Shown here: piece by piece, positions 2,806-43,635 of the stretch
Numbering within the stretch: the stretch's first letter is position 1
Layout: every line of letters starts with the position of its first letter
Origin: Escherichia coli
Lineage (GTDB): Bacteria; Pseudomonadota; Gammaproteobacteria; Enterobacterales; Enterobacteriaceae
Assembly: GCF_024223415.1 (NCBI RefSeq)
Contig: NZ_CP100500.1
DNA length: 64,000 nt
Reading direction: 5' to 3' (one strand)
The notes under the pieces: generated by a model
What the model saw: only the letters and a program-made list of their open reading frames with translations
Told to the model about the DNA's origin: nothing
Database searches by the model: none
Translations under genes and position numbers: made by a program

Positions 2806-3858
2806 CTAAACCGGCGCGCCAGTGCGTAACTGCTGTAACAAACGCTCCACGGGAGCCGCCAGGCCAACTGACGGCGGTTGCGCTAAGTTATACCAGAGCG
2901 CATTGCCTTCATCCATGCAGCCGGTGAATGACGACACGGGAAGCCACATAGGCACAATATCTAAGTGGAAATGGCTGAAGGTATGCCGAAACGCGGTCAG
3001 CTGCGTCAGGTTATCGGCAGCAATCTGCCGTTGCGCCAGCCACTGCCGCAAACTTTCTTCGTCGGCAAACTGCGGGAAACAGTATAAACCGCCCCACAAT
3101 CCGCTCGGCGGACGCTGCGCCAGCAATACTTCATCTTCGTGCTGTAACAGGAGAAAGTAGCCGGTGCGCTCCGGCAGCGTCTGTTTCGGTTTTTTGCCCG
3201 GATAAAGCGACCAGCTATTGTTGGTGGCGGCAATACATCCGTTTTGTAGCGGACAGAGCGAACATTTCGGCTTCGAACGCGTGCAAATCATCGCGCCCAA
3301 ATCCATCATCGCCTGATTAAACCGTTCCACGCCGACCGCGGGCGTCACCTGCTCGCTTAAACTCCATAATTTATTCTCGACCTCTTTTTTCCCAGGCCAG
3401 CCGCTTACAGCATAGCAGCGCGCCAGCACCCGTTTGACGTTACCGTCGAGAATCGGAAAGTGCTTACCCAGAGAAAGCGAGAGAATCGCGCCTGCGGTGG
3501 AACGCCCGACGCCCGGCAGTGCTGCAACTTCCTCAAAGGTTTCCGGGAATATACCGCCGTGTAAGGTCGCCACTTGTTGTGCCGCTTTATGCAGATTGCG
3601 CGCGCGGGCGTAATAGCCAAGCCCGGTCCACAAGTGGAGAACTTCGTCGAGCGGCGCATTGGCGAGATCGGTCACCGTCGGGAAGCGCGCCATAAAGCGT
3701 TCAAAATAGGGGATAACGGTCGCAACCTGAGTTTGTTGCAACATCACTTCTGAGAGCCATACTTTGTAGGGCGTCTTGTCAATTTGCCAGGGCAGAGTTT
3801 TTCGCCCGTATTTATCGTACCAGTCCAGAACCTGGGCTGAAAATTGCGACGCTTGCAT
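2806..3858 (-). CDS. mutY: adenine DNA glycosylase MutY
   Basis: Translation [45 protein letters not shown]...; internal Met chosen as start (the ORF track gives a longer upstream frame). Confidence 0.93.
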
Positions 3859-4018
3859 GGTCACCGAATTCACTGTTGTTGGGGGCAAGATTGCAGCACA
3901 GCGACGGCAGGGTGTAAACCGGAACTTTCCGCAGCCACGGCCTTATCATGCTTGCATCCGGCAACTAACTTTGGATAATGCCCGTTTTCAGAACACTTTC
4001 ACAAGCGACTAAATCTTT

Positions 4019-6142: not shown

Positions 6143-7189
6143 ATGGAGTTTTTCAAAAAGACGGCACTTGCCGCACTGGTTATGGGTTTTAGTGGTGCAG
6201 CATTGGCATTACCCAATATCACCATTTTAGCAACCGGCGGGACCATTGCCGGTGGTGGTGACTCCGCAACCAAATCTAACTACACAGCGGGTAAAGTTGG
6301 CGTAGAAAATCTGGTTAATGCGGTGCCGCAACTGAAGGACATTGCGAACGTTAAAGGCGAGCAGGTAGTGAATATCGGCTCCCAGGACATGAACGATGAT
6401 GTCTGGCTGACACTGGCGAAAAAAATTAACACCGACTGCGATAAAACCGACGGCTTCGTCATTACTCACGGTACCGACACGATGGAAGAAACCGCTTACT
6501 TCCTCGACCTGACGGTGAAATGCGACAAACCGGTGGTGATGGTCGGCGCAATGCGTCCGTCCACGTCTATGAGCGCAGACGGTCCATTCAACCTGTATAA
6601 CGCGGTAGTGACTGCAGCTGATAAAGCCTCCGCTAATCGTGGCGTGCTGGTGGTGATGAACGACACCGTACTGGACGGTCGCGATGTCACCAAAACCAAC
6701 ACCACCGACGTAGCGACCTTCAAGTCTGTTAACTACGGTCCTCTGGGTTACATTCACAACGGTAAGATTGACTACCAACGTACCCCGGCACGTAAGCACA
6801 CCAGCGACACGCCGTTCGATGTCTCTAAGCTGAATGAACTGCCGAAAGTCGGCATTGTTTATAACTACGCTAACGCATCCGATCTTCCGGCTAAAGCACT
6901 GGTAGATGCGGGCTATGATGGCATCGTTAGCGCTGGTGTGGGTAACGGCAACCTGTATAAAACCGTATTTGACACTCTGGCGACCGCCGCGAAAAACGGC
7001 ACTGCAGTAGTGCGTTCTTCCCGCGTACCGACGGGCGCTACCACTCAGGATGCCGAAGTGGATGATGCGAAATACGGCTTCGTCGCCTCTGGCACGCTGA
7101 ACCCGCAAAAAGCGCGCGTTCTGCTGCAACTGGCTCTGACGCAAACCAAAGATCCGCAGCAGATCCAGCAGATCTTCAATCAGTACTAA
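6143..7189 (+). CDS. ansB: L-asparaginase 2 (periplasmic)
   Basis: 348-aa ORF MEFFKKTALAALVMGFSGAALALPNITILATGGTIAGGGDSATKSNYT... Confidence 0.95.
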   Translation: MEFFKKTALAALVMGFSGAALALPNITILATGGTIAGGGDSATKSNYTAGKVGVENLVNAVPQLKDIANVKGEQVVNIGSQDMNDDVWLTLAKKINTDCDKTDGFVITHGTDTMEETAYFLDLTVKCDKPVVMVGAMRPSTSMSADGPFNLYNAVVTAADKASANRGVLVVMNDTVLDGRDVTKTNTTDVATFKSVNYGPLGYIHNGKIDYQRTPARKHTSDTPFDVSKLNELPKVGIVYNYANASDLPAKALVDAGYDGIVSAGVGNGNLYKTVFDTLATAAKNGTAVVRSSRVPTGATTQDAEVDDAKYGFVASGTLNPQKARVLLQLALTQTKDPQQIQQIFNQY

Positions 7190-7305: not shown

Positions 7306-8313
7306 GTGAAAAAGCAATGGATTGTTGGCACGGCGCTGCTTATGTTGATGACTGGTAATGTCTGGGCAGATGGCGAACCGCCAACTGAAAATATCTTAAA
7401 AGATCAATTCAAAAAGCAGTATCACGGCATTCTCAAGCTTGATGCTATCACCTTAAAAAATCTTGATGCTAAGGGTAATCAGGCCACCTGGTCAGCGGAA
7501 GGCGATGTCTCTTCCAATGACGATCTCTATACCTGGGTCGGTCAGTTGGCAGATTACGAACTGCTCGAACAGACCTGGACGAAAGATAAAGCGGTAAAAT
7601 TCTCGGCGATGTTAACCAGTAAAGGAACGCCCGCGTCTGGCTGGTCGGTGAACTTTTACTCTTTTCAGGCGGCAGCCAGCGATCGTGGGCGGGTGGTCGA
7701 CGATATCAAAACGAATAATAAATATCTGATCGTGAATAGCGAAGATTTCAATTATCGCTTTAGTCAGCTTGAATCTGCGTTGAATACCCAGAAGAACTCG
7801 ATTCCTGCGCTGGAAAAGGAAGTGAAAGCGCTTGATAAGCAAATGGTGGCGGCGCAGAAAGCAGCGGATGCATATTGGGGAAAAGATGCAAACGGTAAGC
7901 AAATGACCCGCGAAGACGCCTTTAAAAAAATTCACCAACAGCGTGATGAGTTTAATAAACAGAACGATAGCGAGGCGTTCGCGGTTAAATATGACAAAGA
8001 GGTTTATCAACCGGCGATTGCGGCATGTCATAAACAGAGTGAAGAGTGTTATGAAGTGCCGATTCAGCAGAAACGAGATTTCGATATCAACGAACAACGG
8101 CGACAGACTTTTCTGCAATCACAAAAACTTAGCCGTAAATTGCAGGATGACTGGATAACGCTCGAAAAAGGGCAATATCCGCTAACGATGAAAGTTTCAG
8201 AAATAAACAGTAAAAAAGTCGCGATTTTGATGAAAATTGACGATATCAACCAGGCTAATGAACGCTGGAAAAAAGATACCGAACAACTGCGGCGCAATGG
8301 GGTGATTAAGTAA
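7306..8313 (+). CDS. yggM: DUF1202 protein YggM (GTG start)
   Basis: 335-aa ORF MKKQWIVGTALLMLMTGNVWADGEPPTENILKDQFKKQYHG... Confidence 0.85.
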   Translation: MKKQWIVGTALLMLMTGNVWADGEPPTENILKDQFKKQYHGILKLDAITLKNLDAKGNQATWSAEGDVSSNDDLYTWVGQLADYELLEQTWTKDKAVKFSAMLTSKGTPASGWSVNFYSFQAAASDRGRVVDDIKTNNKYLIVNSEDFNYRFSQLESALNTQKNSIPALEKEVKALDKQMVAAQKAADAYWGKDANGKQMTREDAFKKIHQQRDEFNKQNDSEAFAVKYDKEVYQPAIAACHKQSEECYEVPIQQKRDFDINEQRRQTFLQSQKLSRKLQDDWITLEKGQYPLTMKVSEINSKKVAILMKIDDINQANERWKKDTEQLRRNGVIK

Positions 8314-8319
8314 GTTTTG

Positions 8320-8555
8320 ATATAGCGCACGATTTGTAGCAGGATGCGGCGTTGACCCCGCATCCGGCAATCAACGTCTGATGCGACGCTAGCGCGTCTT
8401 ATCAGACCTACAACAGCTGCCACATGTCGGCTGAGGTGCTCACGCCGCATCCGGCAATCAACGTCTGATGCGACGCTTGCGCGTCTTATCAGACCTACAA
8501 CCGTTGCCACATGTAGGCTGGATAAGGCGTTCACGCCGCATCCGGCAATACAAGT
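8320..8555. repeat. BIME: two tandem ~87-bp REP-containing units plus flanking palindromic units
   Basis: catccggcaatcaacgtctgatgcgacgct[a/t]gcgcgtcttatcagacctacaac... occurs twice, offset about 87 bp (8361 and 8448). Confidence 0.85.
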
Positions 8556-9692
8556 TTACTCAGCCAGAAAAAGCTCCAGCAGCGAATTTAAAAACAGCTT
8601 CCCATGTTCCGTAATCTGCCAGTAATCCGCACATTCGGTGAGATAACCCTGGGCAATCGCCTCGTCTAACTGTGGGCGAATCACATCTTCGCAAAGCCCG
8701 GTATACGCACTAAACTCCACGCGCGGCGCAGGTTCCAGCAACCGGAAGCGATTCATAAAGAACTCAAACGGCTTATCTGCGGCTTCGACATCACGCTGGC
8801 TTTCCAGATACCTTCCCTGCATAAAACCACGCGGATGACGCGTTTTGGTGGTACGCAGAATGCGCCCATCCGGGAAGGTCACTTTGCCGTGCGCGCCGCA
8901 GCCAATACCGATGTAGTCACCAAAGCGCCAGTAGTTGAGATTGTGCTGGCACTGATAACCGAGTTTGGCGTAAGCGGAAGTTTCATATTGCTGATAACCC
9001 GCTGCGGTTAATAACTGATGCCCCTGTTCGAAAATATCCCACAGCGCGTCGTCGTCCGGCAGTACCGGCGGGCGTGAACCAAACAGCGTATTAGGTTCGA
9101 TGGTCAGTTGATACCAGGAAAGATGCGGCGGATTCAGTTCAATAGCCTGGCGCAGATCGCCAAGCGCCTCTTCCAGCGATTGATCCGGTAGCCCATGCAT
9201 CAAATCAAGGTTAAAGCTACGTAACCCTAAACCGCTCGCCAGCTTTGCCGCTCGTTTCGCTTCTTGCGGGCCATGAATACGTCCCAGCCGTTTCAGCTTT
9301 TCTTCGCTAAAACTCTGTACCCCAATAGAGATACGATTTACACCGGCACGCTGATAATCAACAAAGCGATCGGCTTCTACCGTACCGGGGTTCGCTTCCA
9401 TGGTAATTTCTGCATCCGCTGCCAGCGGCAAACGCGCACGCACGCCGTCCAGCAGCGTTTGCATCGCCGAGCCGGAAAGCAGGCTCGGCGTACCACCGCC
9501 AATAAAGATTGTCTTTACTTCACGGCCCTGAGCGTAAGCCACATCGTTGTCCAGATCGTTAAGCAGATGCTGAACGTAATCGTCGTGCGGCACTTCTCCT
9601 TTCAACGCGTGAGAGTTGAAATCGCAGTACGGGCATTTCTGCACGCACCACGGGATATGAATGTAGAGACTCAGCGGCGGTAATTTAACCAT
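8556..9692 (-). CDS. hemW: heme chaperone HemW (radical SAM, coproporphyrinogen oxidase-like; YggW)
   Basis: 378-aa [36 protein letters not shown]... with CxxxCxxC radical-SAM motif. Confidence 0.92.
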
Positions 9693-10278
9693 TACGTAAA
9701 GCGTCCAGCAGCAGTTTCAACGCCTGACCACGGTGGGAAATGGCGCTCTTTTCTTCGCGAGTCAGTTCGGCAGCGGTTTTCCCTTCGGAAGGAACGAAGA
9801 AGATTGGATCATAACCAAAGCCGCCAGTACCGGCCGGTTCACGAGTAATCACACCAGGCCAGCTACCGTGGCACACCAGCGGAGTCGGATCTTCCGCGTG
9901 ACGCAGATATACCAGCACGCAGTGGAAACGCGCCTGACGTTGTTCGTCCGGTACGTCTTTCAGTGTTTCCAGCAGTTTTTGCAGATTCTTTTGATCGGTC
10001 GCGTCTTCACCGGAATAACGCGCGGAGTAAATGCCTGGCGCGCCACCAAGTACATCTACCGCCAGACCGGAGTCGTCGGCAATTGCCGGTAAACCGGTCA
10101 CTTTTGCCGCATGGCGCGCTTTCAGAATCGCGTTTTCGATAAAGGTCAGGCCGGTTTCTTCAGCGGAATCTACGCCGAGGTCTGTTTGGGCCACGATATC
10201 AAGACCGAAGTCGCTAAGCAGCGACGCCAGCTCACGCACTTTACCGGCATTGCCGGTTGCGAGGACAACTTTTTGCAT
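9685..10278 (-). CDS. rdgB: dITP/XTP pyrophosphatase
   Basis: 197-aa [53 protein letters not shown]... Confidence 0.93.
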
Positions 10279-29689: not shown

Positions 29690-29835
<146 letters not shown>

Positions 29836-43502: not shown

Positions 43503-43635
43503 AAAAATTGCCTGATGCGCTACGCTTATCAGGCCTACACGTATCCTGCAATATATTGAATTCGCAGGTTTTTGTAGGCCGGATAAGGCGTTCACGCCGC
43601 ATCCGGCATGACAAAGCGCACATTGATATCTGTCT
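43503..43635. repeat. BIME / REP pair
   Basis: gcctgatgcgctacgcttatcaggcctac ... gtaggccggataaggcgttcacgccgcatccggc. Confidence 0.8.

Follow-up and report, generated by a model that had tools for sequence, protein, structure and literature searches.

The convergent genes yggM and hemW face each other across a gap of 242 bp (8314-8555) in the window, by which we mean the whole stretch of 64,000 nucleotides of Escherichia coli DNA (contig NZ_CP100500.1 of assembly GCF_024223415.1) that was analysed. The same two gene names are used in the RefSeq annotation of identical or near-identical sequence, including that of K-12 MG1655, and the first 24 kb of the window has 100% identity with E. coli O78 strain 3, NCTC10444 and KV7. 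The gap contains five REPs in alternating orientation (y-z2-y-z2-y, 8336-8547). The first REP has its GTAG 22 nt and its stem 25 nt after the yggM stop codon (TAA, 8311-8313). At the other end the last REP, y3, is followed by ATACAAGT and then by the hemW stop codon, and the y3 stem (GCCGGATG..., from 8546) begins 9 nt beyond that stop. This 9-nt spacing is unchanged in all alleles that bear a REP, and four other Escherichia lineages have it too. The coordinates of the features are collected in Table 1.

Table 1. Features of the yggM-hemW junction, with REP elements and RNAs found elsewhere in the window.
Feature	Position	Strand	Evidence
ansB	6143-7189	+	neighbour
yggM (DUF1202 protein), upstream convergent gene	7306-8313	+	ORF list; Pfam DUF1202, E=1.7e-195; RefSeq annotation
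Spurious 156-aa ORF, GTG start; REP translation plus antisense-yggM frame	8064-8534	-	ORF list
Approximate, presumed equivalent of the K-12 rut peak, overlapping REP217 and the yggM 3' end in antisense	~8262-8361	-	transfer of K-12 coordinates
y1, y-type REP, 5' GTAG, GTAGCAGGATGCGGCGTTGACCCCGCATCCGGCA	8336-8369	+	core motif match; aligned to y half of Rfam naRNA4 consensus; outgroup sequences
Tandem unit A, 87 bp: ATCAAC + z2a + 14-nt linker + y2	8370-8456	+	sequence, repeat, motif, Rfam alignment, folds
z2a, GTCTGATGCGACGCTAGCGCGTCTTATCAGACCTAC, ends CTAC; the REP reads on the - strand	8376-8411		
Unit A 14-nt linker, AACAGCTGCCACAT	8412-8425		
y2, GTCGGCTGAGGTGCTCACGCCGCATCCGGCA, degenerate: GTAG to GTCG, 4 nt shorter	8426-8456		
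Rfam RF02564 naRNA4 match, one y+z2 pair	8425-8495	+	63.0 bits, gathering score 59.5
Tandem unit B, 91 bp: ATCAAC + z2b + 14-nt linker + y3	8457-8547	+	sequence, repeat, motif, Rfam alignment, folds
z2b	8463-8498		
Unit B 14-nt linker, AACCGTTGCCACAT	8499-8512		
y3, GTAGGCTGGATAAGGCGTTCACGCCGCATCCGGCA, canonical y REP with GTAG	8513-8547		
8-nt spacer ACTTGTAT (- strand) and hemW stop TAA (8558-8556)	8548-8558	-	sequence reading, ORF list
hemW (radical SAM heme chaperone), downstream convergent gene	8556-9692	-	ORF list; Pfam Radical_SAM and HemN_C; RefSeq annotation
rdgB	9685-10278	-	neighbour
Paralogous unit: z2 + 14-nt linker AACCGCTGCCACAT + y	12910-12994	+	convergent gap
Classical BIME-1: y iREP, ~33-nt L linker with IHF-like AATTCAATATATTG motif, z1 REP	29706-29810	+	Rfam, sequence
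Classical BIME-1, same build as at 29706-29810	43510-43608	-	Rfam, sequence
Sib antitoxin RNA, 136.5 bits	58789-58939	-	Rfam gathering-threshold scan
6S RNA (ssrS), 139.8 bits	59588-59771	-	Rfam gathering-threshold scan

Anatomy of the array

We examine the repeat structure with several searches. Tandem Repeats Finder reports an array at 8358-8549 with a period of 87, 2.2 copies, 90% matches and a score of 310, and it is the only tandem array scoring at least 80 in the window. A repeat search gives a direct repeat of 87 nt (8342-8428 and 8429-8515, with 89% identity), and in it the y-REP core appears three times, at intervals of 87 and 91 nt. Across the whole window the REP core motifs are far above chance, with 11 matches to the y core where 0.24 are expected and 3 matches to the z2 core where 0.00 are expected.

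The initial annotation had described 8320-8555 as two near-identical copies of a REP-containing BIME unit of about 87 bp, arranged head to tail between yggM and hemW. The arrangement and the place are borne out by the sequence, the tandem-repeat search, the RefSeq neighbours and the Rfam alignment, and the coordinates fit the gap. The copies are tandem, but to call them near-identical is generous, since units A and B are identical in 75 of the 85 aligned columns (88%) and are further separated by a 4-nt indel. Two is a correct count of the tandem units, although five REPs, or 2.5 BIME pairs, describes the array better. The REP that stands ahead of the two units, y1, matches in position the single REP of other Escherichia species.

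In the BIME classification of Gilson and Bachellier, as summarised by Ton-Hoang et al. 2012 (PMC3333891), a BIME-2 combines z2 and y REPs of inverse orientation, which are joined by short linkers and repeated in tandem, with a number per locus that differs between strains (PMC3333891). The yggM-hemW array has three y cores and two z2 cores, and a full-length alignment to the covariance model of a y+z2 pair preserves the stems. Neighbouring REPs are inverted, with the y REPs starting with GTAG (GTCG in y2) and the z2 REPs ending with CTAC on the + strand. The linkers are of 6 nt (ATCAAC) and 14 nt, and there is no long L linker with an IHF site. The 87-nt period is present in tandem and its number varies between strains, with alleles of 0, 1 and 2 units. 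The array has every feature that defines a BIME-2 at the level of sequence. We consider it very probable that the 242-bp gap is filled by a BIME-2-type cluster with five REP palindromes, the long allele of the K-12 element REP217.

The individual REPs, when folded as RNA, give -15 to -20 kcal/mol on either strand, with the exception of the degenerate y2. The hairpin of y1 has -17.6 kcal/mol on the + strand and -19.8 kcal/mol on the - strand, and that of z2 has -19.3/-18.4 kcal/mol. The y2 hairpin has -15.1 kcal/mol on the + strand (z=-1.9) and is weak on the - strand (-9.9 kcal/mol, z=-0.75). The spacer as a whole folds much better than shuffled sequence, with z=-7.0 on the + strand and z=-6.0 on the - strand.

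The window contains other members of the REP family. The paralogous unit at 12910-12994 lies in a convergent gap that we take, from the K-12 gene order, to be yggR/ruvX. Of its 85 positions 83 agree with 8463-8547; it has the unusual GTCTGA...TCAGAC stem variant in common with it, and is closer to z2b-linker-y3 than the tandem units A and B are to each other. This similarity suggests that copying or conversion may have taken place between the two loci, which are 4.4 kb apart. A short z1-like iREP precedes the paralogous unit (region 12880-13000) and makes it an atypical BIME. The two BIME-1 elements of the window have L linkers that Rfam labels as the sRNA family ES036/CssrF (RF02751), which is another REP-derived Rfam family.

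Alleles, their origin and alternative readings

To follow the locus through the species, we use a query of 701 bp across the locus and a query made of the flanks only, each sampled as 60 matches at even steps down the ranking. The two queries give the same discrete span classes in complete E. coli genomes. BLAST coverage, whether of the full-length or of the flank-only query, cannot alone separate the 3-REP from the 5-REP form, and span lengths are used together with a query for the internal junction (linker, y2, ATCAAC, z2b, linker). This junction, covered to at least 80%, marks the 5-REP form in 446 of the 5,426 genomes (8.2%). The next-best class of matches to it has coverage of at most 75% at 86-88% identity and comes from other loci.

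The initial annotation had stated that copy number varies between strains, and the comparison across 5,426 genomes confirms this, with spacers of 242, 154/150-151 and 63-68 bp corresponding to five, three and one REPs. The 5-REP spacer of 242 or 241 bp is found in the window, O157:H7 and 11PC. Spacers with three REPs have 154 bp in K-12 and 150-151 bp in JNEC-KY202 and PI7, and those with a single REP have 63-68 bp in A37, C41(DE3) and SSGNw2. According to the samples of 60, about 7-8% of the genomes have five REPs, about 43% have three (as in K-12), about 21% have one, and about 27% carry an allele with a TRAP-transporter operon. No spacer longer than 242 bp occurs in the two samples of 60, and none of the 9 sampled 5-REP genomes has more than five REPs, a number that leaves room for rare longer alleles.

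The flank-only search finds yggM and hemW at most 750 bp apart in 3,932 of 5,425 genomes (72.5%). In the remaining 1,493 (~27.5%), every split case that was inspected has a three-gene TRAP-transporter operon of about 3.2 kb in place of the whole REP spacer, except for one deletion mediated by IS1. The operon encodes a large permease, a small permease and a substrate-binding protein, and it has no REP, only two plain hairpins by both stop codons. The exception is E. coli CEA106S (NZ_CP166722.1, locus 2823-3974), where IS1A lies between a truncated yggM and hemW, and the 3' half of yggM is lost along with the REP spacer. With this IS1A form the locus has a fifth class of allele, which is rare.

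Outside E. coli, a single y REP in a 68-bp spacer is found in E. albertii, E. whittamii, Escherichia sp. E1V33 and the lineage of SCPM-O-B-8794, and the TRAP allele is found in Escherichia sp. MOD1-EC7003. The lone y REP in these lineages implies that a lone y placed 9 nt past the hemW stop predates E. coli, and that the z2+y units are an E. coli addition. These results come from a collection with one genome per species, which returned only Escherichia lineages and two probable contaminant contigs, and whose scope leaves Salmonella and E. fergusonii outside. The two contigs, one of 289 bp labelled Caballeronia mineralivorans and one of 3.3 kb labelled as a Bacillota MAG, contain an E. coli-like yggM (97-100% amino-acid identity) and are probably assembly contamination. 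The 3.3-kb contig has the TRAP allele, yet its first 14 nt after the yggM stop are K-12-like, and from this we place the left breakpoint of the TRAP/REP replacement about 17 nt past that stop.

The next question is how the REP-bearing alleles are related. They fall into two flank haplotypes, one that begins GTTTTGATATAGCGC (the window, O157 and PI7) and one that begins GTTTGATATAGTGC (K-12, 11PC, JNEC and A37). Within a haplotype, each shorter allele can be had from the 5-REP form by a single deletion. In the first, PI7 lacks 91 bp of the window allele and otherwise matches it with 0 mismatches, and the breakpoint can lie anywhere in a 20-nt repeat common to y2 and y3; removal of the register 8457-8547 reproduces this 3-REP allele with 0 mismatches. 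In the second, K-12 is 11PC minus 87 bp and A37 is 11PC minus 178 bp, each with 0 mismatches, and JNEC is 11PC minus 91 bp with 2 mismatches. The breakpoint of the 87-bp deletion lies inside y2/y3, and because of this the terminal y of K-12 is a chimera (GTC of y2 followed by GGCTGGATAAGG... of y3). Such changes in copy number would arise by slippage or by unequal homologous recombination between the direct y repeats, in a register of 87 or 91 bp.

In both flank haplotypes, units A and B of the 5-REP form have diverged in the same way, and by parsimony this makes the 5-REP arrangement the older one. The two units appear old and diverged, not a fresh duplication. The K-12-type alleles and the A37-type 1-REP alleles look like recurrent collapses, a polarity that is drawn from parsimony with no rooted tree and that ectopic conversion from paralogous units, such as 12910-12994, could mimic. 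The 3-REP alleles arose more than once, so that the marker is homoplasic. The suggestion in the initial annotation that the locus could serve for typing stands in part. Copy number separates some lineages, and the O157:H7 genomes among those listed all have five REPs, but the homoplasy of the 3-REP state limits this use, and some 27.5% of the genomes lack REPs at the junction.

We also observe that the spacer 8314-8335, between the yggM stop and the first REP, reads GTTTGATATAGTGCACGATTT in the BIME-bearing haplotypes and TTTTTGCGATGACGCATGAGTT in the ancestral-type 1-REP alleles, and that the two are only about 60% alike. The flanking genes have 92-97% identity at the protein level in the same comparison. 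It seems that the yggM-side spacer was replaced or that its evolution is much faster than that of the flanking genes.

Could the number of repeats be an artefact of assembly, with a short repeat wrongly expanded or collapsed? Tandem repeats raise this question in general, and nothing specific points to it here. A typical sequencing read is longer than the array of 242 bp, the same 242-bp spacer is found in independent complete genomes (including O157:H7 E32511, Combat11I9, O78 strain 3 and NCTC10444), and the internal junction is carried by 446 genomes; against this, the chance of an artefact is negligible. It is also possible to see the second unit as a recent duplication of a K-12-type unit, that is, as an expansion specific to the O157/O78 lineage. 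K-12 has one unit where the window has two, and in vitro BIME-2 recombination and amplification by TnpA-REP has been proposed (PMC3333891). A recent copy, however, is hard to reconcile with units that have only 88% identity and a 4-nt indel between them, with the presence of the same diverged pair in the haplotypes of window/O157 and of 11PC, and with the chimeric terminal y of K-12 and the exact relations of K-12 to 11PC and of PI7 to the window. At least five further changes would be needed to derive the window allele from the K-12 unit, and we regard recent duplication as unlikely. The older 5-REP arrangement with later collapses is the reading that we retain.

The remaining alternatives assign a product to the array. 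On the - strand, 156 uninterrupted codons with a GTG start might be taken for a real repeat-containing protein. The initial annotation had set this ORF (8064-8534) aside as an artefact of the repeat, rightly in our view. Its N-terminal part is translated REP, with the peptide VVGLIRRASVASDVDCRMR appearing twice, and the remainder is antisense to yggM. No Pfam family matches it or the 48-aa ORF at 8468-8614, and it has no annotation in the RefSeq genomes of identical sequence. In the K-12/11PC haplotype the frame is interrupted where a T run differs by 1 nt (the pieces in K-12 are 46 and 101 aa), and its length differs with every allele, so that a real protein is hardly conceivable. A more interesting proposal is that the units are genes for naRNA4-like nucleoid-associated sRNAs, which with HU would bridge cruciforms and condense the chromosome, as in the original REP325/naRNA4 model (PMC4550694). 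RF02564 is the sole Rfam family that matches in the gap; next to the match in Table 1, a second one at 8338-8408 (+) scores 58.8 bits, just under the gathering score, and y3 gives a half-match. In the RF02564 consensus a z2 hairpin comes after a y hairpin. The alignment of our array keeps the two hairpins, and the outer stem of z2 has a compensatory C-G to U-A change relative to the consensus. This model, however, describes a generic y+z2 unit and fits any BIME-2 unit, and for this reason each unit scores. An E. coli genome has units of this type at 33 places (median), the linker between y and z2 has 6 nt fewer here than in the RF02564 model and REP325, and there is no promoter-like site in or beside the array. 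In addition, a preprint of 2026 (10.64898/2026.03.23.713779), from a group to which one author of the first naRNA4 study (PMC4550694) belongs, questions the condensation: it finds REP325/naRNA4 without measurable nucleoid compaction and describes it as a local 3'-UTR element. On these grounds the Rfam match is rejected as a specific gene call, and we consider naRNA4-like genes at this locus very unlikely. The naRNA4 label appears to name a common unit type and not an orthologous sRNA gene. A function of the naRNA4 type, with a discrete RNA of ~77 nt cut from a REP transcript and bound to HU, would be putative here, and it is disputed for REP325 itself.

Possible roles at the two 3' ends

No intrinsic-terminator-like site is found in 8314-8555, and no promoter-like site is found in or adjoining the array. 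The REP hairpins have no T runs and do not have the hairpin-plus-U-tract build of a bidirectional terminator. Because the gap has neither such a terminator nor a promoter-like site, the REP array is the one structured element that either gene has at its 3' end. By analogy, it is likely to work as a 3'-UTR element in both directions, blocking RNA decay and helping Rho-dependent termination, and it is possibly a gyrase site. All functional statements on the window allele are transferred from K-12 REP217 or from other REPs.

The mRNAs of yggM and hemW would end in the array or read into it, and its hairpins, on both strands, would act as barriers to 3'-exonucleases and as sites of pausing or partial termination. 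For K-12, the 2026 preprint (10.64898/2026.03.23.713779) reports a rut peak (3098511-3098610) and a bicyclomycin-sensitive transcript (3098480-3099197) on the hemW-sense strand, both of which start inside REP217 and run antisense into yggM. Because of these two K-12 observations, we propose that hemW transcription may read into the array and be stopped there, with Rho completing termination after pausing at the REPs. The window allele would put one extra z2+y pair ahead of the Rho stop point. The same preprint (10.64898/2026.03.23.713779) places about 60% of REPs between convergent genes, finds convergent pairs with a REP more highly expressed, and describes REPs as dual terminators and stabilisers with a local role in the 3' UTR. 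It also reports a large variance from locus to locus and no general effect of REPs on half-life (10.64898/2026.03.23.713779).

Two further effects may be considered. According to the account in PMC12306157 of Liang, Rudd & Deutscher 2015, REPs at most 15 nt after a stop codon stall terminating ribosomes. The distance is within this limit for hemW (9 nt) and beyond it for yggM (22 nt to GTAG, 25 nt to the stem). The REP after the hemW stop would fall into the stalling class as that account describes it, and an effect on HemW is predicted by analogy. Binding and cleavage by gyrase in vivo are published for the BIME-2 class, in which cleavage sites are enriched, chiefly in the y REPs (PMC6379681). 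The y REPs of the array may be preferred cleavage sites, and this would help where positive supercoils accumulate through convergent transcription. The supplementary text of this Topo-Seq paper (PMC6379681) has no mention of the yggM-hemW locus.

A more speculative extension, to which we give only a small chance, is that the number of units (0, 1 or 2) may work as a heritable, contraction-prone dial. It would set how much of the transcription from hemW runs on antisense into yggM before Rho stops it, and also the stability or translation of the hemW and yggM messages. If this were true, the four allele classes (five, three and one REP, and TRAP) would give lineage-specific expression of the heme chaperone without a change in the coding sequence or the promoter.

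Relation to known REP systems

The yggM-hemW element is already known biology, and polymorphism in BIME-2 copy number is textbook for the family (PMC3333891). The allele series, the exact-deletion relations and the TRAP-operon alternative are tidy details and not surprises. Beyond annotation hygiene, where the feature should be labelled as a REP/BIME-2 orthologous to K-12 REP217, and neither as an ORF nor as a 'naRNA4 sRNA gene', the import is small. The locus can serve as a worked example of how a BIME-2 changes, by exact deletions in a register of 87 or 91 bp between direct y repeats in two haplotype families. The natural allelic series (one, three and five REPs, and none) can also be used for ideas on REPs as two-way 3'-UTR regulators between convergent genes.

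When compared with the BIME-2 family, the array has the alternating y and z2 REPs, the 6- and 14-nt linkers, the tandem and extragenic arrangement and the strain-variable number in common, and it differs in nothing essential, the middle y being degenerate (GTCG, 4 nt shorter). The closest relative is REP217 of K-12 MG1655, which the supplement of the 2026 preprint (10.64898/2026.03.23.713779) lists at 3098414-3098534, convergent, between hemW and yggM; the annotation of NC_000913.3 has no REP feature at this junction. The two elements are orthologous, with the locus, the flanking sequence, y1, z2 and the linker sequences in common. They differ in that K-12 has three REPs in a 154-bp spacer where the window has five in 242 bp, and in that the terminal y of K-12 is the y2/y3 chimera.

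The remaining systems are more distant. REP325, with naRNA1-6 at yjdM-yjdN, has the same y+z2 unit type, tandem repetition and an Rfam score that reaches the threshold, but it lies at another locus. The yggM-hemW array has two units instead of six, stands between convergent and not tandem genes, and has a linker that is 6 nt shorter. The likeness to BIME-1 (RIB/RIP: y, an L linker with an IHF site, z1) is confined to the y REP and the 3' intergenic position, since here the partner is z2 and not z1, the L linker of about 33 nt is absent, and the units are in tandem whereas BIME-1 is single-copy. With the REPIN/RAYT (TnpA-REP) system there is agreement in that y1, y3 and both z2 REPs (the latter on the opposite strand) have retained two features needed by TnpA-REP in vitro, the 5' GTAG and the mismatch in the stem (PMC3333891). 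The changes in copy number at yggM-hemW, in contrast, can be explained by homologous deletion between direct repeats, for which no transposase is needed.
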